Positions 4,986-55,544 of a DNA stretch of 64,000 nt are shown here, one piece after another. Location: positions 4,647 through 68,646 of the forward strand of contig JBAXXP010000004.1 of assembly GCA_037127815.1 (NCBI GenBank). The letters run 5' to 3'. A model generated the notes under the pieces. That model was not told the origin of the DNA and ran no database searches. It was given only the letters and a program-made list of their open reading frames with translations. The stretch comes from a bacterium (GTDB lineage: Bacteria > Patescibacteriota > Minisyncoccia > Phycocordibacterales > CAIZLB01). A program made the position numbers and the translations under genes. Numbering within the stretch: the first letter of the stretch is position 1; each line of letters starts with the position of its first letter.

Positions 4986-5009
4986 ACTCAGTGGTATATA
5001 ATATCTATT

Positions 5010-5246
5010 ATGAAAATAATGATTTACAGCACGCCATCATGTACATTTTGTGTAATGGCCAAGGATTTTTTAAAAGCAAACAATATCCCATTTGAAGAAT
5101 TTAATGTTGCAGCTGATTTGGAAAAGCGCAAAGAGATGATTGAGAAGACTGGCCAGATGGGAGTTCCAGTTATAGATATTGATGGATCAGTTTTGATTGG
5201 TTTCGATAAGCAATTGATTGCACAGAAGGTTGGTATTAAAATTTAA
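5010..5246 (+). CDS. Glutaredoxin-like small redox protein (YruB/NrdH-like)
   Basis: 78 aa with a CTFC CxxC motif near the N-terminus (YSTPSCTFCVMAKDFL) and a thioredoxin-fold-like spacing. Confidence 0.65.
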   Translation: MKIMIYSTPSCTFCVMAKDFLKANNIPFEEFNVAADLEKRKEMIEKTGQMGVPVIDIDGSVLIGFDKQLIAQKVGIKI

Positions 5247-5272
5247 TCGTTATAAAATAATAAAAGTAAAAT

Positions 5273-5800
5273 ATGAAAAAAATATTATACGCAGTTATCA
5301 TAATCGCAATAATTTTATTAGCGGTATACATAGTTAAATATAGATCAGATAAAGATGATGTGGTGGGAACGCCAATAACTTCTAATCTAGAGGTTAATTT
5401 GGCTACAACATCAGATGTTTCAGTTAAAGACACTACGGTGACTGCACCAAGTACAGATATTAAAAATAATTCTACAAAAAATATGGATACAGAAAAAGTT
5501 TCAAAAGCCGGAGATACATTAACAGTTAACTATGTTGGTACACTTGAGAATGGAACAAAATTTGATAGTTCAATTGATAGAGGTACACCATTTAAGTTTG
5601 TTGTTGGTATTGGGCAAGTTATAAAAGGATGGGATGAAGGAATGGTTGGAATGAAGGTTGGGGAGAAGAAGCGTCTTGTTATCCCTGGAGAGAAGGCTTA
5701 TGGATCAAGAGGTATTCCTGATGGTAATGGGGGATACATGATTCCACCAAATGCAACTTTGATTTTTGAAGTTGAGATGTTGGGAATAGAGAGTAAATAA
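5273..5800 (+). CDS. FKBP-type peptidyl-prolyl cis-trans isomerase, membrane-anchored
   Basis: N-terminal TM anchor followed by a Thr/Ser-rich linker. C-terminal FKBP domain: [58 protein letters not shown]. Confidence 0.85.
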
Positions 5801-5885
5801 AGTAGGAGAATAGGAAAGTAGTGGAATGGTGATGATACGATTTTAGCTTGAATAAATTATAAATCTACCTTCACTGTTCTACGCC

Positions 5886-5957
5886 GCCGCCATAGTTCAA
5901 TGGATAGAACAGTCCCGTCCTAAGGGATTGATGTGGGTTCGATTCCTGCTGGTGGCA
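5886..5957 (+). tRNA. tRNA-Arg (anticodon CCT)
   Basis: Cloverleaf built by hand. Acceptor GCCGCCA/TGGTGGC. D-arm TAGTTCAATGGATAGAAC resembles E. coli tRNA-Arg(CCU). Anticodon loop GTCCTAA. T-loop TTCGATT with a T-stem carrying two wobble pairs. No encoded CCA. Confidence 0.65.
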
Positions 5958-6094
5958 CAGAATTAACGAAGTGAATTTTGGGACGACAAGCAAGCCGATA
6001 CTTCGGCTTGCGGGCAGGAATCGAAAAGGTTCTCCCGTATTTTCGAGAAGCGAGCTTTGAGAAAATGGGAAACCTGTACTGGTCTCGTAGAGAC

Positions 6095-6117
6095 CGATTC
6101 CTGCTGGTGGCACAGAA
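6095..6117 (+). repeat. 23-bp perfect direct repeat of the tRNA-Arg 3' end (copy of 5940-5962)
   Basis: CGATTCCTGCTGGTGGCACAGAA occurs at 5940-5962 (the tRNA T-loop/acceptor 3' half plus 5 nt) and again at 6095-6117. The copies are 155 bp apart. Confidence 0.8.
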
Positions 6118-6260
6118 CTCAATAAAGGTATATCTGAGGATACGCCAATTCTCTGCTAAGAATTGGCTCTGCTTACTGCCGTTCGCAAGTTCCTCAGATA
6201 CACCTTTGTTTCATTGGAGATTATACAAATGCATGGTTTTGGGTTAGTATTATCAACAAC

Positions 6261-7343
6261 ATGTTTAAATGTAAACCACAAAAAGAATACGCACTGATTG
6301 ATGCTGGAAATAGCTTCAAATTAGAAAGATATGGAGAATATCTAATTGCAAGACCAGATCCTCAAGCACTGTGGCCTAAGGCTGTTTATAGCGCCCTGTC
6401 TGCCGTTGTAAAGATAAATAATGATAACATCAACCTTTGGCCTAACATTGATGCTGTGTTTGCTAAGGGAGGGTTTGGAGGCTCAAGTGGGCGTGGTTCT
6501 TCGTCTTCATCTTCTGCTCAAACGGATGATGATAATGACATTGGTAATTGGATTAAGACAAGAGCTATCCCTGAAAAATGGCCTATTAAGTTTGAGATGG
6601 GAGATGGCCTTCCTGCATTAAACATATATGCAAGATTGACTCCATTTAAGCATACTGGAATTTTTCCAGAACAGTTTACAAACTGGAAGTGGTCAATGGA
6701 ATTGATTAATAAAGCAATGGAAAATGACACTGCAGGTGCTGAGGCAAAATTCACAAAAGAAAACCCACCAAAAATATTAAATCTTTTTGGATATTCTGGT
6801 GCTGCAACTGTGGCTTGTCTTTTGGCAGGAGCTCATGTTACTCACGTTGATTCATCAAAGGGGGCTGTAACTTGGGCAAATGAGAATGCAGAACTAGCCG
6901 GAGTATTGGACAAACCAGTTAGATGGATTTTGGAAGATGCTGTTTCATTTATTAAGAAAGAAATTAGAAGAGGAAATAAGTATGATGGAATAATCCTAGA
7001 TCCTCCAGCTTTTGGGCGAGGTGCACAGGGTGAGGTTTGGAAAATCGAAAGAGATTTTTTACCATTCCTAGAATTGATTTTTGAATTACTTTCAGATAAA
7101 GCGTTGTTTGTTATTCTTAACGGTTATGCTGCTGGATATTCATCTATTGCGTATTCACAGAACTTTAGAAATCTTATTGCAAAAAGAGGTGGGGAAGTTG
7201 AACATGGTGAATTGTGTATTGAGCAAGATTTGAACGATTTTAAGAAGATGATGGATGGTGCTACTGTGGGCATGGATACATCGTCAAAACTTGACCCAAT
7301 AGTACTTCCATGTGGAATTGTAGCTCGCTGGAAAAGTCTCTAG
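6261..7343 (+). CDS. Class I SAM-dependent methyltransferase, RlmI/RlmK-like rRNA methyltransferase family, with low-complexity Gly/Ser insertion
   Basis: Methyltransferase fold motifs LNLFGYSGAATVA and GIILDPPAFGRG. The N-terminal region is PUA/RlmI-like. An inserted GGFGGSSGRGSSSSSSAQTDDDND tract is present. Confidence 0.6.
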   Translation: MFKCKPQKEYALIDAGNSFKLERYGEYLIARPDPQALWPKAVYSALSAVVKINNDNINLWPNIDAVFAKGGFGGSSGRGSSSSSSAQTDDDNDIGNWIKTRAIPEKWPIKFEMGDGLPALNIYARLTPFKHTGIFPEQFTNWKWSMELINKAMENDTAGAEAKFTKENPPKILNLFGYSGAATVACLLAGAHVTHVDSSKGAVTWANENAELAGVLDKPVRWILEDAVSFIKKEIRRGNKYDGIILDPPAFGRGAQGEVWKIERDFLPFLELIFELLSDKALFVILNGYAAGYSSIAYSQNFRNLIAKRGGEVEHGELCIEQDLNDFKKMMDGATVGMDTSSKLDPIVLPCGIVARWKSL

Positions 7344-7393
7344 TCTTATGATATAGTTGTACCTGGCTGTGTAATAGTATTAAAATTCAAAAT

Positions 7394-7690
7394 ATGGATG
7401 AATACATTGAAGAAGAAATTAAAGAAATAAGCGAAAGATTAGAGAAGCTTGAGAACATGTCTAAAGATAATAGTGTAATGCTAAAATATCTTTATCGTGC
7501 GTATCGTTTATCTTATGCTATTTCTATAATTAAATGGGTAGTAATAATAGGGTTCACTTTGGGTGCCTTTTATTTTCTTCAACCATATCTTGAAAGTGTT
7601 ATGAAGTTATATGGTAGTGTAAATTCTTTGACGGGAGGGGTTGAAAATAATGGAGGAATTGATATCCTTAAGGCGTTGAAGAATATATAG
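7394..7690 (+). CDS. Hypothetical small protein with N-terminal coiled-coil and one TM helix
   Basis: ORF only; no family recognised. Confidence 0.3.
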   Translation: MDEYIEEEIKEISERLEKLENMSKDNSVMLKYLYRAYRLSYAISIIKWVVIIGFTLGAFYFLQPYLESVMKLYGSVNSLTGGVENNGGIDILKALKNI

Positions 7691-7713
7691 TAAGTTGAAG
7701 GTTTGATAGTTAT

Positions 7714-7789
7714 GCCGAGATAGCTCAGTTGGTAGAGCATTTCCCTGAAGAGGAAGGGGTCGCCGGTTCGAATCCGGCTCTCGGCACCA
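7714..7789 (+). tRNA. tRNA-Phe (anticodon GAA), CCA encoded
   Basis: GCCGAGATAGCTCAGTTGGTAGAGC ... anticodon loop CTGAAGA ... GGTTCGAATCC ... TCTCGGCACCA. The cloverleaf is canonical. Confidence 0.9.
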
Positions 7790-7805
7790 AATGTAAGGCA
7801 AGAAA

Positions 7806-7849
7806 AAATCGCCCGTCCCCAAGTGGGGCCGGGCGATTTGAGTTGTTTT
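7806..7849 (+). terminator. Rho-independent terminator after tRNA-Phe
   Basis: Stem AAATCGCCCG ... CGGGCGATTT with inner GTCCCC/GGGGC, followed by GAGTTGTTTT. Confidence 0.6.
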
Positions 7850-7871
7850 GGGGATTGAACCCGGGTGGTTG

Positions 7872-8600
7872 TTACCACCCGTGCCGTTGTTGGCGATACC
7901 CATATGGAGGGCATCCGCCATATTGTTGCGGATATGGCTGGACGACAATTACTTGCCTCCGTTGTTGCTGATAGTAGTTGCCACCCCAGGAATGCTGTGG
8001 ATACTGCTGTTGATAGCAGTTTCCACCCCAAGGTTGAAGACCACGAGGGTCTCGGTATGGGGGAGTGAAGCCGATGTTAATCAGCGACCCATTAATTTGC
8101 CAACCACCTGAACGGCGTTGTGGTGCTTCTTGCACCACCTCCTCTTGCTGTGGCGCTTGCACTTCTGCAAGCATCAGCCTGTTACCACAGTTTTCCTTCC
8201 ATGCCTGCTGAGTTTGACGATCGTACATGATCACCAACCCTACTGGCACGTTTTGAACCATGGCACGATTACCGCCCATATCATTGACCATTGGTCCGCG
8301 TGGACCAAAGACTTCCGACCATAAGATCCTAACGGATCCAGGAGTCGGTGATTTGGGTTGGTTGCCGAAGCAACTGGCGCTGACATATTGACCCACAGCA
8401 TATTGCTGGGGAGCAGGCTGTCTGCGTTGTTGTTGAGCATAACCACCTTGCGGTGGCGCCATGACGCAGGAGGTGAGTCCTGATGCCACAGCAAGACTTA
8501 CGATAGCTGCGAACATTAGCTTTGCAGCCAATGCCCTGCTGATTGGATTCATGACATTCCACACGGTGGTGGAGACGAGTATTGTGTTCATCTTTTTCAT
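7872..8600 (-). CDS. Gln/Tyr/Pro/Gly-rich putative lipoprotein in a visibly GC-rich segment
   Basis: Signal peptide with a lipobox-like LTSC. The remainder is low-complexity and Q/Y/G/P-rich (QQQYPQ, GGNYYQQQRRQ repeats). G+C is visibly higher than the flanks, which is why many overlapping alternative-frame ORFs appear here. Confidence 0.45.
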   Translation of the reverse strand: MKKMNTILVSTTVWNVMNPISRALAAKLMFAAIVSLAVASGLTSCVMAPPQGGYAQQQRRQPAPQQYAVGQYVSASCFGNQPKSPTPGSVRILWSEVFGPRGPMVNDMGGNRAMVQNVPVGLVIMYDRQTQQAWKENCGNRLMLAEVQAPQQEEVVQEAPQRRSGGWQINGSLINIGFTPPYRDPRGLQPWGGNCYQQQYPQHSWGGNYYQQQRRQVIVVQPYPQQYGGCPPYGYRQQRHGW

Positions 8601-8841
8601 CTGGTTTTGGTGTTGAGCAGATATTATCTAGCTAACCTCTGTTAACTAAGTAATATCTGCCCAAAAGCCATAAAAATGTAGAGATGAATGACAATACTTC
8701 CTATCAGGAATCCGACGAAACTAATCAAAGAACTGTATATATTATAGTACTATTACACTGTTTTGTCAAGCATGCAAGGCGAGCTTGGTTTGGTGTTCTT
8801 GTTGGGCTGTAAGATAGAGCCTAAAATGGGTTGATATGATA

Positions 8842-8872
8842 ATGCGGCGCAAGGCAAAGCCTTGCGCCGCAT
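8842..8872 (-). terminator. 13-bp perfect hairpin ATGCGGCGCAAGG-CAAAG-CCTTGCGCCGCAT downstream of the 8908..9381 gene
   Basis: Perfect inverted repeat read from the sequence. Confidence 0.55.
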
Positions 8873-8907
8873 CGAAACTCGTCAAAATCAGGGTTTATAT
8901 ACACAAA

Positions 8908-9381
8908 TTACCTGACCTCAGAATTTGTCTTCATAATGGATTCAAAAGCCTCCAGAACGTATTGTGACAAATTAGTATCTCTTAGGTGAGGCTCATAGAT
9001 TGCAAAATCAGCCGTTATCATCTTCAGACAATTTTCTGCAGTAGAATCCCAGACTATCTGAAACAGGATGTTGCCTAAGTTCATTCCATGTTCAGTAAAG
9101 ACAGGTCTCTTTGTTGCAGCCTTTATCCTGTAGGTGTACGTTGTGGGTAACTTTTTCCCGCTAGAATTTTGAATATTGATATCAATCCAGCTCTCCCAAA
9201 GCAAAAACCATATGCCAAATTTTCCTTCAATAATCTCGATAGTAATTGTTGCTTTATTTATATCGAGCCCCAATTCTTTTTCTAATTCGTCTCCGCAGTC
9301 TTCTGACCCAATAATTTGCCATTCTGCATCAGGTGCAGTAAATGGCTTCACCATAGACTTTAATGTACTTTCAGTTGTCAT
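8908..9381 (-). CDS. Hypothetical protein (157 aa), possibly SRPBCC-like fold
   Basis: ORF with moderately elevated GC and no confident family match. Confidence 0.4.
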   Translation of the reverse strand: MTTESTLKSMVKPFTAPDAEWQIIGSEDCGDELEKELGLDINKATITIEIIEGKFGIWFLLWESWIDINIQNSSGKKLPTTYTYRIKAATKRPVFTEHGMNLGNILFQIVWDSTAENCLKMITADFAIYEPHLRDTNLSQYVLEAFESIMKTNSEVR

Positions 9382-9442
9382 TGTTTGTTGTTCTTTCTCG
9401 GTGAGAGATTAACATGCTTATATTTAAATAACAACAAAAAAA

Positions 9443-9494
9443 GAATGAAAAATTTGGGGTCAGGCACTGTGGTGCCTGACCCCAAATTTCATTC
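9443..9494. repeat. Palindromic repeat element copy 1 (core GGGGTCAGGCAC-TGTG-GTGCCTGACCCC, arms extend with AAATTT); also serves as terminator of Hsp20 gene
   Basis: 28-bp core with a perfect 12-bp stem at 9456-9483. Near-identical copies occur at 44291-44318 and 55506-55533. Confidence 0.8.
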
Positions 9495-9515
9495 TTCAAT
9501 CTTTTACTGTTTGTG

Positions 9516-10049
9516 TTAAATACTTTTAACCCTAACCTTCATTTGTCTGTCCTTATCAACTCTTGGAAGTTTTAAAGTTAGAATACCTTGTGACTCTATG
9601 GCTTCTGCGTGCTCGATATCAATTTCATGAGGAAGTTGAATAGTTCTTGAGAATGAACCCCAGTATAATTCTCTGTGAAAGTAATCATCATCGGAAACAA
9701 TTTTCTCTTCCTTCCTTATTCCCTTAAGTGTAATGGAGTCTCTAGTTAAATTAATTTCCAAATCTTCCTTTCTAACACCTGGAATCATAGCTTTCACAAT
9801 AACATCATCTTGTGTTTGATACACATCTACAGAAAGCTCACTATCAGCTGATGAATCATCTACCCACGATGAACTATTTTTATCATCAAACTTTGGATAA
9901 ATTTGTGCACTCTTTTTAGAAACTGCTGTAATAGAAGGTCTTACGTTTCTGGCTGCTGTAAAATCAAAATCTTCAGCCTCTTCTAATTGCTCATCTTCAT
10001 CGATGTTTACCGCGCCTGTTAGTCTTTCAAAAAAGGATCTTTTTTTCAT
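9516..10049 (-). CDS. Hsp20/alpha-crystallin family small heat-shock protein
   Basis: Alpha-crystallin domain: VDVYQTQDDVIVKAMIPGVRKEDLEINLTRDSITLKG ... FSRTIQLPHEIDIEHAEAIESQGILTLKLPR. Confidence 0.85.
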   Translation of the reverse strand: MKKRSFFERLTGAVNIDEDEQLEEAEDFDFTAARNVRPSITAVSKKSAQIYPKFDDKNSSSWVDDSSADSELSVDVYQTQDDVIVKAMIPGVRKEDLEINLTRDSITLKGIRKEEKIVSDDDYFHRELYWGSFSRTIQLPHEIDIEHAEAIESQGILTLKLPRVDKDRQMKVRVKSI

Positions 10050-10129
10050 ATGTGTAAATTTTTTATGTTCTAATTATAAATCATATAAAAGAAAAATGCT
10101 ACATTAATTTGGAATATAGATAAATAAAG

Positions 10130-10156
10130 AGCGCCGTTCCCTGTGGGAACGGCGCT
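10130..10156 (-). terminator. 12-bp perfect hairpin AGCGCCGTTCCC-TGT-GGGAACGGCGCT downstream of the 10202..10537 gene
   Basis: Perfect inverted repeat read from the sequence. Confidence 0.55.
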
Positions 10157-10201
10157 TACAAAATCGTTTCTCGCTAACTGAATCAACTTCTCGGCTGAAA
10201 C

Positions 10202-10537
10202 TTAAAACCCATTCTGTTCCAACCAGTAAATATACTTCAAATGATCAGGGTTGTTGATGTCAGGCTTTGCCCCTGACTCTCCGCTTTCAAACTTGAGAAT
10301 GTCGAGATATTCTGGTTTACCACCGAACAGTTGCACCAGTCCCTGGATTGGGATGCAAAGATTCTCACGAATTCTCTTTGCTTTCACTCGATCAAATCTT
10401 CCGGCAACAGGTTCTATGTTGATAGAAATAGCGCTAATGCGCTCCATAATCATGTTCTGTTCAACTTCAGGAAGGTATGGGAATTGACGCATGAGATCAA
10501 TACAAATGGCGTTAAAGGCCGTAATAGTTGCATTCAT
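10202..10537 (-). CDS. Hypothetical protein (111 aa)
   Basis: ORF only. Confidence 0.35.
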   Translation of the reverse strand: MNATITAFNAICIDLMRQFPYLPEVEQNMIMERISAISINIEPVAGRFDRVKAKRIRENLCIPIQGLVQLFGGKPEYLDILKFESGESGAKPDINNPDHLKYIYWLEQNGF

Positions 10538-10688
10538 ATTTAGTTCGTTTCTAGTTTGGTGTTTATGGTTTCAATCAGTACGTTAAGGAACAACAATAGA
10601 AGACTATACTATTTGAGCGTATAGTCAATAAATTAATTTACACCTGGGCTTGGCTGATCGAAATGATAGTTTAAGGAGTAGGCAAAGA

Positions 10689-11426
10689 CTAGAACTGCTT
10701 TATCTGCTTAACTTTCTCCAGTGACAAAATCAACAATATAATAGATATCCAAACAAATGAAAATGCAATAAACATATTCTGCTCATCGCTTATTACAATT
10801 ATGTAATTAAAAATAGTATGTATAACTCCCGCAACAAGTAGCCCAAGAAAGGCTAGTGAGAATTTACCAAATTTTCCCCTATAAAAACCATATCCAATAA
10901 AAATAGAGAATACCCCGGATGCTGCAACATGAAGGAGACTAGCTCCCATAAAACGAGCGGCTCCTGTCATTATGCTTGCAACCAGGTCTCCTCTAAATAA
11001 TGGAGTTAATAAAAATAAAGTATTCTCCATGGCCGCAAAACCAAGTGATACACTCATTAAGTATATAAAACTATCAATAGGGTGATTAAAAATTGTCTTA
11101 CTTCGTAATGCAATAAACCAAGCCCCGCCAAACTTAACAGCTTCCTCAATTAATGCCCAAATATAAATGGCATGTAAGTCACTGTCTTTCAAATTAAAAA
11201 GTCCAACAGATATTTTTTGAAGCGGATACACAACAAAAACTCCACACATTCCTACAACAAAGGACAAAAAGATAATATCCTTAGGTTCTTTGTGATCATT
11301 TGCTTCATGCATCCAAAACCATAACCAAAACATAGCAGGTAAAACACCTCCCACTAAGGCATAGGCAAAAACCTCTATTGCAAACAGAGGAGCTCCTTGT
11401 AATTGGTTTATTAAGTAGTTGGCCAT
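10689..11426 (-). CDS. PrsW-family intramembrane metalloprotease-like membrane protein
   Basis: Polytopic membrane protein with ALIEEAVKF (EExxK), GFAAMEN (FxxxE) and two conserved His in TM helices (LLHVAASG, VIHTIFNY), as in the PrsW/CAAX protease family. Confidence 0.55.
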   Translation of the reverse strand: MANYLINQLQGAPLFAIEVFAYALVGGVLPAMFWLWFWMHEANDHKEPKDIIFLSFVVGMCGVFVVYPLQKISVGLFNLKDSDLHAIYIWALIEEAVKFGGAWFIALRSKTIFNHPIDSFIYLMSVSLGFAAMENTLFLLTPLFRGDLVASIMTGAARFMGASLLHVAASGVFSIFIGYGFYRGKFGKFSLAFLGLLVAGVIHTIFNYIIVISDEQNMFIAFSFVWISIILLILSLEKVKQIKQF

Positions 11427-13816
11427 TTTTCGGTCATTATCAATTCTCGAGTTTTAAGCTCTTTTGGAAGAAGTGACCAAAGTTCTTGAGTTACATGAGG
11501 CATAAATGGATGTAGTGTCTTTACAATCATCGCAAGTGTTTCAAGTAAGAATTTTGCGCGAGATTTTTTCATCGCAACAGCTTCTATATTTGATTCATCG
11601 TTATTTGCAAAAATTTCTTTACTACTTTCTAAAATGACATCAGCAAACTCCTTCCATGTATAATTATACAGGTCTTCTGCAACAATGTGAATCTTTAAAT
11701 TGTCCATATTTGTTGATATCGATTTAAAAACTTCATTTCTCTTTTCAATTAACGCTAAATCAGCTTCAGTGAAAGATATATTTGTCTTATCTTCGTCCAC
11801 ACCGTTACTTGCAACATCATGCATTCCTTCGGTTGAAGTTAAAATAAATCTAGTAACATTCCAAATTTTGTTTGCAAAGTGTTTGTATCCCTTAATTTTA
11901 TTTTCATCGATTTTACTATCAGTTCCTGGTGCTGTTCCAAAAACAAGTGACATTCTACCGGCATCCATTCCAAATTTTTGAGCAATTTCTATTGGATCGA
12001 TTCCATTACCTAATGTCTTTGAAAACTTTCTTCCTTTCATATCACGAACCATTCCAGTGAATAGAACTTTACTGAAGGGTATTGTTCCAAGGACATAACC
12101 TGTCATTAAAATCATACGTGCTACCCAGAAGAAAATAATGTCATGTCCAGTAACAAGAAGGTTTGTTGGATGATATATTGCAAAATCACTTTGTGGATCA
12201 TTTGCTTTTGCAGGCCATCCCATTGTTGAGAAACTCCAAAGACCAGAAGAGAACCATGTGTCTAGCGTGTCTTCATCTTGAATCCATTGATCTGCGTCAT
12301 CGCCAGTTGGAGCTTCTAGTCCGCAATAAATATCAGATTTAGATGCCTCAGAATCTGCCTCCTGATTTATATTAGAACCTTTCTTATACCAAACGGGAAT
12401 TCTGTGTCCGTACCAGATTTGGCGAGAAATACACCAATCGTTCAAATTATCTATCCAATTAAAATATGTTTTAAGGAAGTGCTCAGGCATCATCTCAATT
12501 TGGCCACCCAGAACTGCCTTTTGCATAATTTCCTTTAATGTAGTTTCTGATCCAGATTCTATTCCATCAATATCAGAATGGGGGAGTTTGAATTTTTTAT
12601 TAACAGCAACAAACCATTGAAGCTTAGGAAGTGGCTCAATAATTCCACCAGTACGCTCGGCAGTAGATACTCTTTGATCAATTTCAGTTTCATCAATAAG
12701 TAAATCATTTTCTTTAAGCCAAGCAACAACAAGCTCTCGCGCTTCAGCAACTTTTTTACCAACAATCTCAGGAGAACCAATCATCATGCGAGCTTTTTCA
12801 TCAATAACCTGAACCATAGGTAAACCATGACGCATTGCAATTTGATAGTCAGTCATGCTGTGTGCTGGGGTAATACCAACAGCACCTGTTCCAAAATCCA
12901 TTTCAGCCTCATGGTCTGCAACAATTTTTATTTTAATTGGAGCACCACAAAAATCCATTGAATATTCTTTTCCAACAAACTCCTTATAACGAGGGTCCTC
13001 CGGGTTTACTGCAACAGCAACATCTCCCAGTTTTGTTTCAGGACGAGTTGTTGAAATAGCGATAGGGAAGTCTTTACTATATTTGAAAGTATAAAACTTT
13101 GCCTTTCTGTCTTCATAAACTATTTCATCATCTGAAATTGTTGTTTGACCTTTTGGGTCCCAGTTAATAACTCTATTTTTTTTGAAAATTAGACCATCGT
13201 CATACATTTTTTTGAAAACAGTTCTAACTGCAAAGTTTCTTTCCTCATCTAATGTGAAGGCTTCTCTTGACCAATCAACAGAAGCCCCAATTGTCTGAAG
13301 TTGAGAAACAATTGTATCGTGACTTTGCTTTGCAAAAGTATCAACTCGCTTAAGTAACTCCTCTCTACCTAAATCATGTCTATTCAAACCTTCCGCCTTT
13401 TGAATATTTTTCTCAACCATTGATTGTGTTGCAATTGAGGCATGGTCCGTTCCAGGAATCCAAAGTACTCTATTTCCTTTCATTCGTTTGTATCTAATTA
13501 CGATGTCTTGCGTAGTGAACCCAAGAGCGTGTCCCATATGAAGTGTTCCAGTTACGTTTGGAGGAGGGAGAATAATACTATAAACAGGAGCATCAGCTTT
13601 AGTGATTCCTTCTTTAATACAAACATCTGGATTGTAAAATCCACTTTCACGTTCTTCTTTTTGAACTCGAGGTTCCACCTCAGTTGGATCATAAGGCTTT
13701 AGAAGTTGAGCTGGGATATTTGGGGCATAATGAGTTTTTTGCTCTGATGTGTCCGTTTTCTTATTATTTTCAGTATTTGCATCTGTGTTTGATGCGATGT
13801 TTGTATCTTGGCTCAT
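11411..13816 (-). CDS. valS: Valyl-tRNA synthetase
   Basis: PPNVTGTLHMGHAL HIGH motif. GTDHASIATQ is a ValRS signature. KFSKTLGN is the KMSKS motif. At 801 aa the C-terminal coiled-coil domain seems to be missing. Confidence 0.85.
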   Translation of the reverse strand: MSQDTNIASNTDANTENNKKTDTSEQKTHYAPNIPAQLLKPYDPTEVEPRVQKEERESGFYNPDVCIKEGITKADAPVYSIILPPPNVTGTLHMGHALGFTTQDIVIRYKRMKGNRVLWIPGTDHASIATQSMVEKNIQKAEGLNRHDLGREELLKRVDTFAKQSHDTIVSQLQTIGASVDWSREAFTLDEERNFAVRTVFKKMYDDGLIFKKNRVINWDPKGQTTISDDEIVYEDRKAKFYTFKYSKDFPIAISTTRPETKLGDVAVAVNPEDPRYKEFVGKEYSMDFCGAPIKIKIVADHEAEMDFGTGAVGITPAHSMTDYQIAMRHGLPMVQVIDEKARMMIGSPEIVGKKVAEARELVVAWLKENDLLIDETEIDQRVSTAERTGGIIEPLPKLQWFVAVNKKFKLPHSDIDGIESGSETTLKEIMQKAVLGGQIEMMPEHFLKTYFNWIDNLNDWCISRQIWYGHRIPVWYKKGSNINQEADSEASKSDIYCGLEAPTGDDADQWIQDEDTLDTWFSSGLWSFSTMGWPAKANDPQSDFAIYHPTNLLVTGHDIIFFWVARMILMTGYVLGTIPFSKVLFTGMVRDMKGRKFSKTLGNGIDPIEIAQKFGMDAGRMSLVFGTAPGTDSKIDENKIKGYKHFANKIWNVTRFILTSTEGMHDVASNGVDEDKTNISFTEADLALIEKRNEVFKSISTNMDNLKIHIVAEDLYNYTWKEFADVILESSKEIFANNDESNIEAVAMKKSRAKFLLETLAMIVKTLHPFMPHVTQELWSLLPKELKTRELIMTEKWPTT

Positions 13817-14012
13817 ATTTTTATTATTTATATATTTATATTATCACAAAGTAGGGGATTATAAAGGTATAAAGTTGGTATTTAATAGGCTTAAAATCTA
13901 CCCAAAAATAATTGACGTACTATGATTAATATTGTATTGTCTTTGGTGGAAGTGGAACCCGATGTTCCATTATGACCAGATCATTTTAGAACTTAATTGA
14001 TAGAAGTATTTT

Positions 14013-14324
14013 ATGGATATTGTAGTTGGTCAAAGGGCTGTTGTTAACACAGATATGAAACATGCCTATGCTTTATTCGAGCAGTGCTGTTTTCTACCGG
14101 GGCAGAGAATTACCAAGCTGGCGATAAGCTATCTTGGCTCTTGCCCGGTTTGTGGGGCTTCATGCGATCTAATACTTTCTGAGGAGCTTGAAACGGGAGT
14201 GATACGTGCAAAAGAGGACGATTTTTGTAGGCAGTGTGGAAACAGGCTTACAACAGTTGCTCCACAAAAACCTATTAAGCTTTTAGATCAAGAGACAATT
14301 TTTCGTCTCTTTGGTCCGTATTGA
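14013..14324 (+). CDS. Small zinc-ribbon protein (CxxC...CxxC), hypothetical
   Basis: CPVCG...CRQCG motif pair. GC is visibly higher than the genome background. Confidence 0.4.
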   Translation: MDIVVGQRAVVNTDMKHAYALFEQCCFLPGQRITKLAISYLGSCPVCGASCDLILSEELETGVIRAKEDDFCRQCGNRLTTVAPQKPIKLLDQETIFRLFGPY

Positions 14325-14359
14325 TTCAATCAAATCCCAAACAAAGAAAAAATAATTAA

Positions 14360-14680
14360 ATGAGCCCAGAAGAAATTCTAGCGTTTTTTGAAAAGCAAAT
14401 CGTTGACGAAAGGGAGGTGTTGGTTGCAACAAAGCCGATGACCTCTGAACAAGCACGTGAGATTTATCCCTACCGACCATTTTCAAAATATTCCGAGTCT
14501 GGTTGGAGTGGAAATAATCAAATGGACGATTCCGCATTGCTGATGAATGAGTTGGCGGTTCTTTGCAAAATCTGCCGAGCTGCAACTGGGAAGAAATTTG
14601 TTCTGTCGGGCGTCTGTCCTGACTGTAACGGTCGTTCTGAACGACACGCTAACAATCCCCGTAAGTCAGTGAAAAAATAG
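14360..14680 (+). CDS. Small zinc-ribbon protein (CxxC...CxxC), hypothetical
   Basis: CKIC...CPDC motif pair. Sits directly downstream of 14013..14324. Confidence 0.4.
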   Translation: MSPEEILAFFEKQIVDEREVLVATKPMTSEQAREIYPYRPFSKYSESGWSGNNQMDDSALLMNELAVLCKICRAATGKKFVLSGVCPDCNGRSERHANNPRKSVKK

Positions 14681-14779: not shown

Positions 14780-16165
14780 CTAAAGTCCCAAATTCCCATT
14801 AGCCCTAAGCCCCGGATATTCTGTTTGATTCCAAGCTAGATCGCTCTTATTTAATTTTGAAATAAAATGACCATTTGAATATTGTAAAAATCCAGCAATA
14901 CCAATCATTAGTGAATTGTCGGTTGAGAGATTTTTTTCAGGAACAAGTAATGTGACATTTTGCTCTGGATTGGCGTATGTAAATTCATCAGCAATCATTT
15001 TTACAAAAGATTCTTTGATGTATGTGTTTGCAGAAACTCCGCCACCAATAATTAATGTCTTAGCTGAGCTTATCTCTAGCGCTCGTTTTGTTTTAGAAAT
15101 TAAAACGTCAGTTACAGCTTGTTCAAATTCTGCACAAAGCGATGCTTTGTCTGATTCTGTTAATTCTTCCAGCTCACCAGCAACTTTGTTTTTTGTATTA
15201 TCACGAACAGCGTATAGAACAGAAGTCTTTAAACCAGAGAAAGAAAAATCGCAATCTTTTTTTGTAATCATTGGACGAGGTAAGTTCCAAGCAATACCTA
15301 TAGATGCAATGCCAGTAGGATTGTTTTGCAATGGAAACTCTCCATCTCTAAATTTCTTTGCAAGAGCTGAAATTTTTGGCCCACCGGGATATTTTAATCC
15401 AATAATTCTTGCAACCTTATCAAAAGCTTCACCAACTGCATCATCTCTAGTTTGTCCTAGTAGTTTGTAATCACCCCAACCGTTAACCTGTACTAGCTCT
15501 GTGTGACCTCCTGAGATAAGAAGGGCGACAGCGGGGAATAGTATATCTTTTGCAATCACATCTTCTTTGTCAGATGTATTTGCATTTGAATCCAAAAGAA
15601 CAGATGTAATATGCCCCTCCATGTGATTTACTGGAATAATTGGAAGTTGCCAAATATACGCCAGGGCTTTTGCGCCACTTATTCCAACCCATAGTGCTGG
15701 CTCAAGACCAGGGCCTACTGTCACCGCAATAGCATCTATTTCTGGAGCTTCATATTTTGCAAAGAAGTCTAGAAGATCATCGTGCATTATTTGTTCTCTT
15801 TCACCTAGGAATGATAATGAGTCAGTTATATTATTAACCTCAACTACACTAGGAGTTTTTTCAATAAGCATTCCAGCATCAAGAAGTGCAGAAATTAAAA
15901 TAGGTGTGAAATTTTTTATGTGCTCACGCTTTGCAAGAGTAGGAAAGACTCCACCAAAATCTGCATGAGTTTCAGCTTGTGAATATAATGCATTTCCAAG
16001 TACTTTAAAAATTAGCTTTTTATTTGAGGCCTGATTTATTGCACCGAGCGTGTTGTTTATTGTATCAGATTTGTCAGTCACATCTACGGCGTTGGTACCA
16101 AAACTAGCCTCAATTATAGATATTGCGGTTTCGTCACAACTTGTTTCAACTGATAGTATTCTCAT
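14780..16165 (-). CDS. tsaD: tRNA N6-adenosine threonylcarbamoyltransferase TsaD (Kae1/YgjD family), with large insertions
   Basis: MRILSVETSCDETAISI N-terminus with a conserved His pair (NHMEGH). At 461 aa it is longer than the usual length of about 340 aa because of insertions and a C-terminal extension. Confidence 0.8.
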   Translation of the reverse strand: MRILSVETSCDETAISIIEASFGTNAVDVTDKSDTINNTLGAINQASNKKLIFKVLGNALYSQAETHADFGGVFPTLAKREHIKNFTPILISALLDAGMLIEKTPSVVEVNNITDSLSFLGEREQIMHDDLLDFFAKYEAPEIDAIAVTVGPGLEPALWVGISGAKALAYIWQLPIIPVNHMEGHITSVLLDSNANTSDKEDVIAKDILFPAVALLISGGHTELVQVNGWGDYKLLGQTRDDAVGEAFDKVARIIGLKYPGGPKISALAKKFRDGEFPLQNNPTGIASIGIAWNLPRPMITKKDCDFSFSGLKTSVLYAVRDNTKNKVAGELEELTESDKASLCAEFEQAVTDVLISKTKRALEISSAKTLIIGGGVSANTYIKESFVKMIADEFTYANPEQNVTLLVPEKNLSTDNSLMIGIAGFLQYSNGHFISKLNKSDLAWNQTEYPGLRANGNLGL

Positions 16166-16336
16166 GTTCCTATTTAACTATATTTTGCTAGATTAGTATA
16201 GTGTTGGCAATTAATAGGCCGAGTTTTAATAAACCAAGTTTACGAAAAGTTTTATCACTATTTACAAGTATAAAAAAAGAGTATAATAGTAATGTAAATT
16301 AATCAGAAATAATTATTAAGCTAATTAAATAAATAT

Positions 16337-16462
16337 ATGAGTAATGGAAGAGGAGGAAGCAGAGGTTGTAATGGAAGACCACAAGCAGCAAGACTAGAGG
16401 CTAAGACTAAAAAGGCTGGAAATAGAGCTGTAAAGAAGCCAAAGAAAATAGTCATAGTTTAA
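16337..16462 (+). CDS. Possible small basic Gly/Arg/Lys-rich peptide (41 aa)
   Basis: ATG-initiated ORF MSNGRGGSRGCNGRPQAARLEAKTKKAGNRAVKKPKKIVIV, absent from the supplied track because it is under 60 aa. It lies in the intergenic region ahead of the DUF2207 gene. Confidence 0.2.
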   Translation: MSNGRGGSRGCNGRPQAARLEAKTKKAGNRAVKKPKKIVIV

Positions 16463-27655: not shown

Positions 27656-28144
27656 ATGGACATGAGTACATCATTTGATAACATAACTATATCTTTTGAA
27701 GAGGATGAAACCGGTGAAATGGAAATACCAACCGGTCGGGCAAGAATGGAGGGCTGGATTCAAGGAATGATTGGGGCAAAAAAAGTCGAGATTGAGGTTG
27801 GTGTTGCCAATCGCTTCAGTGGAATTGTTGAGAATGTAAGGAAAAAAACCTTCGTCATTACCAGGCTTAAAACCTGCCGTCAGGAAAGAGAAATATTTAC
27901 CTCAGACACAGAAAGACAGCATCGGAGGATTTTGATGCTGAGTGAGGTGTTGCTGATACTGAAAAGGGCTTGGCTTTTATCAGCTCTCGGTACAATCAGG
28001 TTTTGGTGCAGGGATAAGGATGGATCTATACGTTTGATGGGTATCAGAAAGGAGTTTAATAACACGGTATTTGTTTTTGAGGAGAATCCTGGTAACAGAG
28101 ATTTTATTCCAAAGACAATCATTGTGCGTTTTGAAAAGAAGTAG
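27656..28144 (+). CDS. Hypothetical protein (162 aa), GC-elevated
   Basis: ORF only. Confidence 0.35.
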   Translation: MDMSTSFDNITISFEEDETGEMEIPTGRARMEGWIQGMIGAKKVEIEVGVANRFSGIVENVRKKTFVITRLKTCRQEREIFTSDTERQHRRILMLSEVLLILKRAWLLSALGTIRFWCRDKDGSIRLMGIRKEFNNTVFVFEENPGNRDFIPKTIIVRFEKK

Positions 28145-32417: not shown

Positions 32418-32537
32418 CCAGCCCCAAATTATCATCCTTGAGAACACGCCAGTTTTCTGCTGAAACCCTTAATTTCCTTCGCAATCACCTGCTCACTGCC
32501 ACTCGCAAGTTTCTCAAGGATGATAATTTGGGGCTGG
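32418..32537. repeat. 27-bp perfect inverted repeat (CCAGCCCCAAATTATCATCCTTGAGAA / TTCTCAAGGATGATAATTTGGGGCTGG) flanking a 66-bp loop, 110-230 bp upstream of rpsA start
   Basis: The arms are at 32418-32444 and 32511-32537, read directly. GC is elevated. The spurious ORF 32360..32548 spans this element. Confidence 0.8.
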
Positions 32538-36983: not shown

Positions 36984-37814
36984 GTGATAATACTGGGGTT
37001 TTTTATTACTTGCAAAATTAATAAAAAAAGAGCAATATTCAAAAGGATCCAAAACAACAAAGGAGGCTTTGTGGACAATGATACTAATAATAGAACAAAA
37101 ACGAACAAAGAAAGAAGGAAGGAAGAAAAGGAGGAAAGAGAGACGCTTAAGATATTTCCAGTAGTCCAATTGACTTGGAGCCGATTACCCAGAATAGTTG
37201 TCATCGATTGGAAGAATATTAGGTCTCGTGAATACAGGCTTGATCATCTAACCAACGGTGAATTGAATGCTTTCTGGCACATGGATGCAAACGCCAAGAT
37301 TGATTATTTGATTAGATGTTTCAATCGTCATCACAGGAGGCCTAGATGTCAAAAAGGCGTAACGGAGTGTCATAATTTATCGTATGTCGATATTGAGTCA
37401 CATACAAGTTACAATAAGCTGATTTTTGTCATTTCCAGATGGTTCAAAATGTCAGAGGCGGAAGTCAAAACTAAGCATATTGCTATTTTTTTGAAAAAGG
37501 TCTATCCGTCACTGGAGAGACTTATGACAAACCCTGTGACGCGAAAGATGAAGAGTCTGAAAAGTTTGCTGCATACTGGTAGTTTTAATAAGTTGAGTCC
37601 CGCTTTTATTGGGAATGTTGCAAAGTGGGCTGGTATAAAATTTGGAGCAGTTCATGCAAATGATATTCGGCGATTCATTACACAGATTTACCTAGCACTT
37701 AAAAGGATTGCATACGATCACTCCTTGGGTAGACTGAAGACTTTACCTGCGTTCATTAAGGTGCTGAATAAAATTTGGATACCGAGAGATTGCCAAATAA
37801 TTTTGAAACTCTGA
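36984..37814 (+). CDS. Hypothetical protein with highly basic N-terminal region (276 aa; true start probably internal)
   Basis: ORF only. Contains a KKRAIFKRIQNNK...KERRKEEKEERE tract. Confidence 0.35.
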   Translation: MIILGFFITCKINKKRAIFKRIQNNKGGFVDNDTNNRTKTNKERRKEEKEERETLKIFPVVQLTWSRLPRIVVIDWKNIRSREYRLDHLTNGELNAFWHMDANAKIDYLIRCFNRHHRRPRCQKGVTECHNLSYVDIESHTSYNKLIFVISRWFKMSEAEVKTKHIAIFLKKVYPSLERLMTNPVTRKMKSLKSLLHTGSFNKLSPAFIGNVAKWAGIKFGAVHANDIRRFITQIYLALKRIAYDHSLGRLKTLPAFIKVLNKIWIPRDCQIILKL

Positions 37815-44239: not shown

Positions 44240-44290
44240 CTCATTGACTATTGATTACAATTAGCATAACCTGTCAGGTAGATAATATTT

Positions 44291-44318
44291 GGGGTCAGGC
44301 ACCATGGTGCCTGACCCC
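44291..44318. repeat. Palindromic repeat element copy 2 (GGGGTCAGGCAC-CATG-GTGCCTGACCCC)
   Basis: Perfect 12-bp stem flanked by ATTT/AAATT, in the divergent intergenic region between 42908..44239(-) and 44329..44814(+). Confidence 0.8.
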
Positions 44319-44328
44319 AAATTAAACA

Positions 44329-44814
44329 ATGAAGTACCAAACAATAGATAATAGTATGAACATTATTCAAATCGTATCAGATATTTTAGCTCAAACAGTA
44401 GAAATTCACGGCTTACCTGAGTCACGCCTAGTGGCGTACTCACCGGGTTGGGGCACAGTAGTCGTTCCTAAATTTGATGTCTTAGCGGAGGATTTGCTTA
44501 AAATCGTTCGTCTTCAAACTCTTCTCAAAATAGTTGAAAGTAATACAGGTCTTCAGTCACAAGAAAGTGTTCTTGAGGACATTGGTAATGGGGTTCATGA
44601 TGACAATCCAAGTTTTAATAATTTTTTGCGGAACGATGGCGCGATTCGCCGTAGTGTTTATGTCCAAGTTATAACTTTGGAGAGATTGATTGTTGAATTG
44701 ATTCAGTCATTTATACCAGCTGAAAGCGACAGATTTGATGTTGCGTATCGTATTAGCACGGAAAAGCAAATTATGTTCCATGAAGTCTGTTTTTTTGGAG
44801 GATCGTCTGATTGA
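44329..44814 (+). CDS. Hypothetical protein (161 aa)
   Basis: ORF only. Followed by a hairpin terminator at about 44865-44900. Confidence 0.35.
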   Translation: MKYQTIDNSMNIIQIVSDILAQTVEIHGLPESRLVAYSPGWGTVVVPKFDVLAEDLLKIVRLQTLLKIVESNTGLQSQESVLEDIGNGVHDDNPSFNNFLRNDGAIRRSVYVQVITLERLIVELIQSFIPAESDRFDVAYRISTEKQIMFHEVCFFGGSSD

Positions 44815-44998: not shown

Positions 44999-46216
44999 TT
45001 AGAGCCTTCCAGTTCCGGCTTTTTTGTTGTGCCCATTTTTTGCAACCATAAGTGTCAGAATAATCATAAGCGATCCCGACATTATCCAGGCTGATGGAAT
45101 CCCAAAACGATTCGCAACGTATCCACTCGCAAATAGTCCAATCATACCACCAAGGTGGGGTGATATGGCTTCAAAGGAGCTTATCGTTGCTCTTGCGTGT
45201 GAGGGAATGTTATCTTGAAGGAACTTATCTTTCAGCGGAGCAAACATACCTCTTGGAATTTCATGGAGAATAAACACTGCGATGCCTACTGGAAATGGTA
45301 TTATCGTAATAATTAATGTCCCAAATCCAATTAACAGCTGACAAATAGTTAAGGCCTTTTTTTCATCCTTAACTAATGCTAGGAATTTATTAGCAAGTAG
45401 TGAACCTGCCGTTAGTCCAAGCATCATACCTGCCCAAATGTATCCTAAAGATTTTTTGTCATGAAGATAATCTAAGAAGTATGGTTGCCATTGCATGTTT
45501 AGAGCTTGCACGGCAAAGACTTGAATAAGACCAGCAACCAAAAGGAATCTAATCACTTTGTTGTTGATACCAAATTCAATACTTTGCTTGGTGGTTTCTT
45601 TCATCGCCGAGAGCCCCAGCTTGAAGGAAAATTCTTTTTTGACGAAGTACTCTTCCTTAAGCCAGAACATTGCGATTATTCCCGTTATAAGCGAGAAAAA
45701 CCCAAGCCATATCCATGGCAATTCAATACTGATGTCTGCAAGTTGAGATCCAATTAAAGCAGAAATAATTCCAGCGATTAAGCTAAAAATTTGTGCTCTG
45801 GAAAAGACCTTATGCAGTGATTCTGTGTATCCATGATGTTGTAGTTTATCGACAAGCCAGGCTTTAAAGGCCCCACTTGCAAAAGTTGCACCAATTGCCA
45901 AAACTGCTTCTGATGCTGCAAAGCCCCAGAATGATTTTGAATAGGCGTACATGAATCCACCGATTGTCGTGAGTAAACACGACATAACAAATGAAGATTT
46001 TCTTCCAAAAATATCTGCAAAGGCACCTGTTGGTATCTCACAAATAAATAGGGTTGAAAAATAGACTAAATTTACCAAATTCACTTCAAGTAGGTTTAAA
46101 CCATTGGAAATGAGGAATGATACGTATACCGCCGCAATTGCGCCTCTTGCGAAGCTCAGGAGTGACGTGAGTGTGACATATTGGACGATTGTCCGTTTTT
46201 GTAGGTTCATAATCAA
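44999..46216 (-). CDS. Major facilitator superfamily transporter
   Basis: Twelve predicted TM helices and an MFS signature-like GAFADIFGRKSSF loop. Confidence 0.8.
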   Translation of the reverse strand: MIMNLQKRTIVQYVTLTSLLSFARGAIAAVYVSFLISNGLNLLEVNLVNLVYFSTLFICEIPTGAFADIFGRKSSFVMSCLLTTIGGFMYAYSKSFWGFAASEAVLAIGATFASGAFKAWLVDKLQHHGYTESLHKVFSRAQIFSLIAGIISALIGSQLADISIELPWIWLGFFSLITGIIAMFWLKEEYFVKKEFSFKLGLSAMKETTKQSIEFGINNKVIRFLLVAGLIQVFAVQALNMQWQPYFLDYLHDKKSLGYIWAGMMLGLTAGSLLANKFLALVKDEKKALTICQLLIGFGTLIITIIPFPVGIAVFILHEIPRGMFAPLKDKFLQDNIPSHARATISSFEAISPHLGGMIGLFASGYVANRFGIPSAWIMSGSLMIILTLMVAKNGHNKKAGTGRL

Positions 46217-47647: not shown

Positions 47648-48109
47648 CTATTTTGTTGGAGCCTCCACCAATGACAGTAGGTGGTTGTAACTCACCTCCA
47701 GCTTACGAAGAAGGAAACTCTCTTTTGGAGACCGCTCCTTTTGACCATAGTAGGTAACCCAGTCGTTAAAGAACGCAAGTCTAAAGCTAATGTACTTGCG
47801 TAAATTAACTCCTTCTTCTTGTTCTGCCATTTCCAGTTCCTGTTTCAGTGCGTATAAGCACTCTCCGTCATCGTGGTCTCTAGTGGGTTCAATGATTTCA
47901 TGGATTAACCCGAGTTCCCGATATTCCTTCGGATAAGCATCGCTAATCGCAAGTACTCCATCTTTGAAAATGACGAAGTTTGCGGGTGCATATTTTCCTG
48001 TTGAAAACTCTGCGCTGATTATGGCATAGGTGTAAATCTCTCCGGCGTAAGTGAGATTTGCCTGTCCGATAACGTATGGGGTAAGCCATAATGGAATCTG
48101 TTTGATCAT
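47648..48109 (-). CDS. Hypothetical protein (153 aa), GC-elevated
   Basis: ORF only. Confidence 0.35.
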   Translation of the reverse strand: MIKQIPLWLTPYVIGQANLTYAGEIYTYAIISAEFSTGKYAPANFVIFKDGVLAISDAYPKEYRELGLIHEIIEPTRDHDDGECLYALKQELEMAEQEEGVNLRKYISFRLAFFNDWVTYYGQKERSPKESFLLRKLEVSYNHLLSLVEAPTK

Positions 48110-55499: not shown

Positions 55500-55505
55500 A
55501 GATTT

Positions 55506-55533: not shown

Positions 55534-55544
55534 AAAACATACAA

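Follow-up and report, generated by a model that had tools for sequence, protein, structure and literature searches.

The lpp mRNA is heavily structured, and the mRNAs of S-layer proteins and of ompA are stabilized by stem-loops in their 5' untranslated regions (5' UTRs). The lpp gene of Escherichia coli encodes a very abundant lipoprotein, is transcribed constitutively and gives a stable mRNA with a half-life of about 10 min (PMC5924895). Here we describe a gene that invites comparison with lpp in a 64,000-nt stretch of DNA (hereafter the window) from a lineage of uncultivated freshwater Patescibacteria, whose closest relatives are lake metagenome-assembled genomes, those further away bearing the labels Parcubacteria, Paceibacteria or Nomurabacteria. 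The gene (7872-8600, minus strand) encodes a 242-aa lipoprotein rich in glutamine and tyrosine, and is therefore called the Q/Y gene below; it converges on a tRNA-Phe gene. Like lpp and other abundant envelope genes, it is a single-gene unit for a small envelope lipoprotein with a strong promoter and its own terminator. Unlike lpp, it encodes a beta domain followed by a disordered tail rather than a coiled coil, and its product has no sequence or fold relation to Lpp; the organism, a patescibacterium, is monoderm-like, its leader for this gene lacks a Shine-Dalgarno sequence, and the coding sequence stands 15-25 GC (guanine plus cytosine) points above the genome.

The interval between hsp20 and tRNA-Phe, in which the Q/Y gene lies, resembles the tRNA-adjacent flexible islands of aquatic bacteria in its fixed place and in a content that differs among close relatives, and most of its cargo appears to relate to the cell surface (lipoproteins, membrane-anchored paralogues, pilin-like genes and a large surface protein). 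It departs from these islands in that the tRNA-side lipoprotein is kept in every clade member with conserved expression signals, and in its small size (1.7-6 kb) and high GC content, which is usually low in glycosylation islands. With tRNA-integrated islands and prophages the locus shares a place beside a tRNA 3' end, one atypical gene and a site that is empty in distant relatives, but no integrase, attachment (att) repeat, mobility gene or phage or plasmid relative was found in the searches described below, and two of its four genes are vertically inherited. We show that the stretch of four genes next to tRNA-Phe is not a single island but a mosaic lying in a variable hotspot, and we propose that the Q/Y gene is probably a clade-specific cassette for strong, stable expression of a fast-evolving surface lipoprotein.

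A GC-rich gene in a small lipoprotein family

An earlier note on this DNA, made without database searches, had described the interval next to tRNA-Phe as a GC-rich block of four minus-strand genes, namely the Q/Y gene, a 157-aa unknown (unk157), hsp20 and a 111-aa unknown (unk111). All four open reading frames (ORFs) were found where it had placed them (7872-8600, 8908-9381, 9516-10049 and 10202-10537), as was the pile of overlapping ORFs at the Q/Y gene (ORFs of at least 60 aa in other frames across 7579-8600). The balanced G+C content reported near 7870-8600 was also recovered: the Q/Y gene has a GC content of 52.0% against 36.6% for the window, is the only stretch above 50% GC in the 64 kb and lies more than 4 standard deviations (SD) above the mean of 45 long window ORFs (0.368, SD 0.036). 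However, the block as a whole is not GC-rich, with 38% in unk157, 35% in hsp20 and 42% in unk111, and only 7872-8600 is strongly atypical.

GC at third codon positions (GC3) averages 0.281 (SD 0.069) over the same 45 ORFs and reaches 0.49 in the Q/Y gene. On a codon score defined as the mean log preference for native synonymous codons, 22 reference genes gave 0.205 ± 0.049 and the Q/Y gene gave -0.21; its codon usage is truly non-native, and the earlier impression of a gene atypical for this genome was correct. Native codons together with the amino-acid composition of the protein predict a GC of 0.43 and a GC3 of 0.25, against 0.52 and 0.49 observed, so that about half of the GC excess is due to codon choice. 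The shift is general, being seen for the majority of amino acids and along the whole gene: AGA makes up 6% of arginine codons against 61% in the reference genes, and GTC plus GTG make up 76% of valine codons against 14%.

This composition is common to the family to which the gene belongs. The 18 family genes measured have a GC of 0.51-0.60 and a GC3 of 0.47-0.66, and their flanking genes a GC of 0.30-0.39 and a GC3 of 0.19-0.34. The 230 nt 5' of each family gene are AT-rich (GC 0.26-0.37); the compositional shift therefore begins at, and is confined to, the coding sequence. Between orthologues of hsp20 the proportion of synonymous differences (pS) is 0.69-0.79 and the synonymous divergence (dS) is at least 1.9, that is, synonymous sites are saturated. 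Given such saturation, a foreign gene under neutral evolution would be expected to have reached the GC3 of its host, about 0.25, by drift, and the family instead holds the values given above. The Q/Y gene is not a recent arrival, and we infer that its GC-richness is kept in place on the coding sequence and is not a trace of recent foreign origin. The anomaly is restricted to the coding sequence, and ancestry cannot explain it.

The protein consists of a signal region with the lipobox LTSC (residues 1-44), a Q-rich linker (45-67), a beta domain (about 68-148) and a disordered Q/G/P/Y tail (149-242). The signal layout (MKK...R..K, LMFAAIVSLAVASG, L-T-S-C), identified by eye and not by a dedicated predictor, fits the lipobox pattern [LVI][ASTVI][GAS]C, and a cysteine follows the hydrophobic stretch in every long-form homologue with a complete N-terminus. 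The lipoprotein signal seen earlier was thus confirmed, and the product is predicted to be membrane-anchored (lipidated). The view that the protein consists almost entirely of Q/Y/P/G repeats had to be given up: these four residues make up 38% of the whole, 30% of the conserved core and 55-65% of the linker (23 aa) and tail (94 aa), and no real tandem repeats were found in the protein. A prion-like or adhesin-like composition, likewise proposed, does not describe it, because low complexity is restricted to linker and tail, the core is folded and no adhesin domain was detected with Pfam or NCBIfam. AlphaFold2 modelled the core as a small beta-rich domain of ~80 residues with a predicted local distance difference test (pLDDT) score of 93-98, the disordered tail scoring below 50. 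The core had no match in a PDB sequence search and no fold match: the best Foldseek E values against PDB and viral structures (0.29 and 0.12) are not meaningful; no Pfam, NCBIfam, PHROGs or PADLOC family matched the protein.

A word-indexed protein search returned the Q/Y protein itself alone, and its relatives surfaced through synteny and profile searches. The family is tiny, with 28 proteins at E <= 0.001 among 1.84 billion representatives in the profile search. For the comparison of neighbourhoods, we used 35 related loci from a PrsW-anchored scan of reference genomes, compared by tblastn. A homologue with 27-51% identity lies beside tRNA-Phe in all five closest genomes (L001-L005), and a family gene also lies there in L046, L048 and L051. 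In L049, valS-prsW-hsp20 is followed directly by a family gene and the contig ends before the tRNA; in L052, a short contig, the family gene stands beside a pilB-like gene. Positional orthologues occur in at least nine other genomes, and the Q/Y orthologue is the tRNA-Phe neighbour in every clade relative with that side readable. A hidden Markov model of the core found no family member in the more distant loci L006-L035. Every family context examined was an AT-rich Patescibacteria-like contig. The Q/Y gene is one of a small family of lipoprotein genes encountered only in such contigs, GC-rich and, in the freshwater clade, always convergent on tRNA-Phe.

The family core can be aligned in 26 sequences, with the consensus FGNQPxxPTxG..W..vFGPxGP..N..G.RAxVQ.vP.G..ilfD....WaWK..CGNRV. 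Long members share the lipobox signal, a Q/G-rich linker, the ~80-residue core and a variable P/Q/R/C/Y tail in which CPPP motifs are frequent, and a short subfamily carries the same core after a hydrophobic N-terminal segment (presumed to be a membrane anchor) and has no tail. The protein is only 27-50% identical between genomes whose neighbour genes are 77-87% identical, and nonsynonymous divergence (dN) is 0.47-0.75 for the family gene versus 0.07-0.15 for hsp20, with the proportion of nonsynonymous differences (pN) below pS. A diversity-generating retroelement target was considered for this fast-evolving gene and rejected: no repeat of 7872-8600 occurs elsewhere in the 64 kb, and no reverse-transcriptase match was obtained among the neighbours scanned.

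Expression signals and mRNA structure

A promoter scan placed a perfect sigma-70 promoter, TTGACA-17-TATAAT, at 8741-8769 on the minus strand, with a predicted 5' UTR of about 134 nt; no other perfect match to the consensus occurs in the 64 kb. A perfect TTGACA-16/17-TATAAT is present in all 14 family genes with enough upstream sequence, 55-98 nt 5' of the leader motif described below, and this set includes short paralogues and a second copy in L001.

The 5' UTR contains a conserved 24-bp bulged hairpin (8613-8664, minus strand; covariance-model match at 8601-8672, 75.5 bits), whose sequence is strongly conserved (ACUUAGUUAAC ... GUUAGCUGGAU) despite saturated neutral sites. Among the 10 leaders used for training, pairing holds in 96.2% of cells and compensatory changes occur at 7 pairs, a result reached by none of 500 shuffles, and slid registers gave 30-46% pairing. 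Over all 15 copies such changes occur at 9 pairs, in an alignment that was fitted by the model and so favours structure; the paired fraction is 95-96% over the two sets. The covariance model recovered five untrained copies, each directly 5' of a family gene, and the remainder of the 28 sources scanned (about 430 kb) gave no convincing match; 8613-8664 is the sole sense-strand copy in the window. The hairpin scores 56-91 bits in the sense and 30-50 bits in the antisense orientation, and two G-U pairs vary hardly or not at all, which indicates that the element acts as an RNA of the coding strand. Rfam 15 has no family for it, and at E <= 0.1 returned just two tRNAs in 5000-11500. The possibility that the hairpin marks an integron cassette was also considered and seems unlikely, since it lies 5' of the genes, is confined to this family, is strand-asymmetric and has conserved G-U pairs; no search aimed at an integron integrase was made. 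Between hairpin and start codon lies a C/A-rich leader without a Shine-Dalgarno sequence, abutting the ATG (8601-8612, minus strand; CACCAAAACCAG). The corresponding stretch between the hairpin's 3' flank and the ATG is 76-97% C+A in 15 of 15 family genes, again with no Shine-Dalgarno sequence.

The coding sequence itself folds far better than its composition predicts. The minimum free energy of the 729-nt sequence is -293 kcal/mol, versus -238 ± 7 for dinucleotide shuffles (z = -8.25). Permutation of synonymous codons, with protein and codon usage kept, gave -238 ± 8 with a best value of -266, and none of 200 permutations reached the native energy (z about -7; a run of 20 permutations gave z -9.7). 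Signal, core and tail regions all contribute to the excess. Among long-form homologues z is -3.6 or lower in 10 of 13, down to -9.9, whereas the background of 42 other window ORFs gave -0.42 ± 1.10 with a minimum of -3.2, and two GC-matched genes of the L001 hotspot gave -2.4 and -2.9. The predicted structure of the Q/Y mRNA consists mostly of short local hairpins (median pair span 21 nt), perfect Watson-Crick hairpins being 3-7 times commoner than in codon-permuted sequences. In all 10 genes compared, the excess is larger on the sense strand, although the antisense also beats its controls (z -0.7 to -6.2). No conserved RNA structure was found within the coding sequence across homologues, the hairpin positions differing from one to another; structuredness as such, and no particular fold, is common to the long homologues.

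Taken together, these signals suggest how the proposed cassette, which we take to be self-contained and finely tuned, might operate. The perfect consensus promoter would drive transcription at maximal strength, giving an mRNA whose 5' UTR of about 130-220 nt holds the conserved 24-bp hairpin. The unstructured C/A-rich leader, which lacks a Shine-Dalgarno sequence, would serve ribosome loading, the GC enrichment and the arrangement of synonymous codons would create many local hairpins in the coding sequence, and a strong terminator would close the unit. The expected outcome is an mRNA that is both plentiful and long-lived. It would encode a surface protein anchored in the membrane, in which a small beta domain able to form disulfides is joined to a disordered tail rich in Q, P, Y and C and which evolves 4-10 times faster than hsp20, probably under host or phage pressure.

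The hsp20-tRNA-Phe hotspot and two orphan genes

The gene order valS-prsW-hsp20-(tRNA-Phe)-orf98-methyltransferase gene is kept across the 35 related loci. In the window, the conserved flank is the gene of a PrsW-type intramembrane protease (10689-11426, minus strand; PF13367, E = 4e-22), the synteny anchor. The hsp20 gene (9516-10049, minus strand, 177 aa) directly follows prsW in nearly all 35 loci (about 30 Patescibacteria loci), and past it, in the loci checked for tRNAs, come an opposite-strand tRNA-Phe, a 98-aa gene, a methyltransferase gene and an FKBP gene. The assignment to Hsp20 made earlier was upheld by PF00011 (57.3 bits versus a gathering cut-off of 20.8, E = 1.9e-15, residues 77-173), and the protein fits the Hsp20/alpha-crystallin family with nothing unusual. 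The gene has native composition (GC 35%, GC3 0.236, codon score 0.26 versus 0.205 ± 0.049 in the reference genes), and its upstream -10 region is conserved among relatives. Because the order prsW-hsp20-tRNA-Phe is conserved, hsp20 is an ancestral gene of the valS-prsW-hsp20-tRNA-Phe neighbourhood and stands outside any island.

The tRNA-Phe(GAA) gene (7714-7789, plus strand; ARAGORN; Rfam tRNA, 73 bits) has the same position and orientation in the relatives checked. As the earlier note had it, a terminator follows: an imperfect hairpin at 7806-7839 with 16-nt arms and one mismatch (an inverted repeat 94% complementary) and a T-run 3' of it on the minus strand, which is shared as a bidirectional terminator by tRNA-Phe and the convergent Q/Y gene. 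The GC hairpins assigned to the other three genes are all real and perfect (8842-8872, 14 bp; 9450-9489, 18 bp; 10130-10156, 12 bp) and account for 3 of the 13 such hairpins in the window, albeit not all of them are clear terminators. The pattern of a GC stem-loop plus T-run was found at 7806-7839, at 9449-9490 and at 10130-10156, where the terminator and hairpin scans agree on an intrinsic terminator of unk111 with a T-rich tail (minus strand). The GC-rich hairpin 3' of unk157 (8842-8872, minus strand) has a weak T-tail and was not flagged by the terminator scan.

Between hsp20 and tRNA-Phe, the gap measures ~45 bp in L007 and L009, where the site is empty, ~230-350 bp in L008 and L012, and 1.7-6 kb in the window, L001-L006 and L011, with cargo that varies by genome and includes transposases in L001 and L004. 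The earlier note had suggested a search for relatives without the block, and its reading holds to this extent: the hsp20/tRNA-Phe site is a genuine variable hotspot. With gene labels read from translations, the L001 hotspot (12959-14476, 15560-16369) holds GC-rich pyrF-like and phosphoribosyltransferase-like genes plus an insertion-sequence transposase, and that of L004 (12275-13471) another transposase-like gene; a gain of nucleotide-synthesis genes by a reduced patescibacterium, as L001 may illustrate, is of interest in itself. Labels of the same kind give three type IV pilin-like genes in the gap of L006 (11283-14615) and a 632-aa secreted repeat (surface) protein in that of L011 (4294-6192). 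Judged by these translations, the hotspot gathers surface proteins in several lineages.

The two remaining genes of the interval are strain-specific orphans, each with its own hairpin. unk157 (8908-9381, minus strand, 157 aa; GC 38%, GC3 0.39, codon score 0.004) has mildly atypical codons and sits in the slot that a short lipoprotein-family paralogue fills in relatives. Its only match among 5.8 billion proteins was itself, and none was found in the 35 related loci, Pfam, NCBIfam, PHROGs, PADLOC, PDB or viral contigs. unk111 (10202-10537, minus strand, 111 aa, all-helical; GC 42%, GC3 0.44, codon score -0.07) is likewise mildly atypical in codon usage and is missing from all 35 related loci by tblastn. 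It represents an insertion of ~500 bp between prsW and the hsp20 promoter in this genome only, the prsW-hsp20 gap being 640 bp in the window versus about 20-180 bp in relatives. Its protein cluster has one member, annotated 'hypothetical protein', no family, phage, viral, metagenome or PDB match was found, and a single-sequence structure model was too poor for use (pLDDT 47). Neither orphan is similar to hotspot genes of relatives or has a paralogue in the window. They may have been acquired or have newly arisen.

By eye, an 8-bp inverted repeat (GACTATAC ... GTATAGTC) 5' of unk111 (10598-10630, minus strand) overlaps a promoter-like TTGACT/TATAGT pair, and the middle of the protein resembles a helix-turn-helix motif; unk111 may be a small self-regulated DNA-binding protein. 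Moderately atypical genes like unk157 and unk111 are dispersed in the window, not clustered. ORFs with raised GC3 (0.36-0.46) and low native-codon scores lie at 27656-28144, 37281-37814, 44999-46210, 47648-48109, 55545-56339 and 60760-61536, several of them without an obvious function from sequence.

Other repeats and structured spacers were observed in the window. The hsp20 terminator (9449-9494, minus strand; terminator scan and repeat search) is one of three intergenic copies of the palindrome TTTGGGGTCAGGCAC-4nt-GTGCCTGACCCCAAA, the others lying at 44284-44329 and 55499-55544, and this palindrome was not found in the fetched loci of any relative. A perfect 27-nt inverted repeat with a 66-nt spacer is present at 32418-32444 and 32511-32537. 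Between tRNA-Arg(CCT) (5886-5958) and the methyltransferase gene lies a 300-nt non-coding spacer (5959-6260, plus strand) of 45% GC with a folding z of -7.8 against shuffles, which gave no Rfam match even at E <= 10. The tRNA-Arg 3' end is duplicated here as a 23-nt direct repeat (CGATTCCTGCTGGTGGCACAGAA; 5939-5961 and 6095-6117). The first ~160 nt of the spacer are 72-86% identical beside tRNA-Arg in L051, L046, L008 and L011 and are missing in L001-L005; the spacer may represent a small RNA not yet described, an element linked to the tRNA or the scar of an old integration. A long hairpin in its second half (6133-6200) is 79-82% identical to part of the prsW-hsp20 spacer of L001 (10774-10823) and of L004 (10782-10847), which suggests a small palindromic element moving between intergenic sites.

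Competing explanations and significance

Several points weigh against the reading of the Q/Y gene as a cassette for strong, stable expression. The high abundance and long half-life proposed for its mRNA are deduced from signals in the DNA. The leader hairpin might just as well be a site for a repressor or for RNase III, and expression would then be conditional and not constitutive. Hairpins within the coding sequence do not keep their positions, which is compatible with an origin by mutation too. The short paralogues match the Q/Y gene in GC-richness with little excess folding (z -0.05 to -1.8), so the hairpin arrangement cannot be the sole cause of the GC-richness. Two native membrane-protein genes also beat their permuted controls (z -3.0 to -4.8); these are prsW (10689-11426) and a membrane-transporter-like ORF (44999-46210), and the L049 orthologue of prsW gave z = -0.5. 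A further step would be to regard the mRNA as 'armoured', selection for dense structure having lifted the GC of the coding sequence by 15-25 points and held it there past saturation, with the leader hairpin as a new dedicated cis-regulatory RNA, for example a site of binding or of processing; this is possible, and we put it forward as a tentative proposal.

Two other explanations address the same composition and structure. The lipoprotein gene may have been replaced repeatedly by homologous recombination anchored in tRNA-Phe and hsp20, its GC deriving from GC-biased conversion or from a higher-GC allele pool. Such a process would suit a locus hypervariable in content and length, a protein so much more divergent than its neighbours, and the fact that other hotspot cargo is GC-rich too (short paralogues, the L001 pyrF-like and phosphoribosyltransferase-like genes and one L006 ORF). 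We consider it unlikely, because a conversion tract would ignore the boundary at the start of the coding sequence, where promoter and leader remain AT-rich, because the L052 member is equally GC-rich in its different context beside a pilB-like gene, because a higher-GC source lineage was not detected, and because an excess of RNA structure specific to the sense strand is not predicted. Alternatively, the hairpin excess and part of the divergence may be a mutational by-product, for example of template switching, by which the quasi-palindromes of a GC-rich, low-complexity gene become perfect. The non-conserved positions and the surplus of perfect hairpins, the folding of the antisense strand beyond its controls and the very fast evolution of the gene are all compatible with this, but the sense strand is the more extreme in every gene compared, the excess spans signal, core and tail, equally GC-rich short paralogues lack it, and the conserved promoter, hairpin and leader indicate selection on expression; we rate this account as quite unlikely.

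The model proposed in the earlier note, in which all four genes form one island gained by horizontal transfer and inserted at the tRNA-Phe 3' end, is very improbable. The adjoining tRNA gene, the non-native codons of the Q/Y gene and the mildly atypical ones of unk157 and unk111, the empty site in the distant L007 and L009 with other cargo elsewhere, and the transposases in L001 and L004 all speak for it. Set against them are an hsp20 that is native and syntenic in about 30 genomes, positional orthologues of the Q/Y gene in at least nine others and an AT-rich, host-like leader in front of that gene. Both hsp20 and the lipoprotein gene are present in all close relatives, with just unk157 and unk111 absent, and the Q/Y gene itself combines conserved synteny, against an acquired origin, with codon usage that is non-native. 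The hallmarks of an integrated island are missing as well: no block ORF matched an integrase, recombinase or mobile-element family in Pfam or NCBIfam, and a search of the 64 kb with two probes for the end of tRNA-Phe (its 3' 16 and 25 nt, up to 3 mismatches) matched the tRNA alone. The search for a donor yielded none, the contexts examined for the 28 representatives among 1.84 billion being all AT-rich, and viral, phage, plasmid and metagenome searches with the three unknown proteins and the RNA motif found no relatives. A single metagenome match, L050, proved to be a chance match in a GC-rich histidine-kinase gene. Hardly credible, finally, is the notion that the GC-rich segment is a structured non-coding RNA or an assembly or binning artefact. 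Very strong folding, many overlapping alternative ORFs and the want of a known protein family would favour a non-coding RNA, but the protein core is alignable in 26 sequences and modelled at a pLDDT of 93-98, the lipobox cysteine is conserved in long forms, pN is below pS in the Q/Y reading frame and no consensus RNA structure runs across homologues. The block is moreover 100% identical in 8 contigs assembled independently from several samples, and is therefore not an assembly artefact. These contigs derive from JGI 3300021605 and 3300020228 and from runs SRR7053308, SRR7053533, SRR7053536 and SRR12676971.

These results bear on how islands are called. Atypical composition beside a tRNA gene is routinely read as transfer, whereas the anomaly described here persists in orthologues and stops at the boundary of the coding sequence, which indicates that something local is at work on the coding sequence itself. 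Should this be selection on mRNA structure, the Q/Y gene would show clearly, and in nature, a coding sequence whose GC is set by such selection and not by ancestry or mutation bias, and would offer a compact example for work on codon usage and GC content. The locus also adds new parts: an uncharacterized lipoprotein family with a domain that lacks a detectable fold relative, a maximal promoter and a leader RNA motif not described before. In Patescibacteria, proteins of the cell surface may take part in attachment to hosts and in recognition by phages, and the fast evolution of this family and its hotspot site fit such roles. If the mRNA is indeed armoured as tentatively proposed, the gene would probably also mark the major surface protein of an uncultivated episymbiont lineage.

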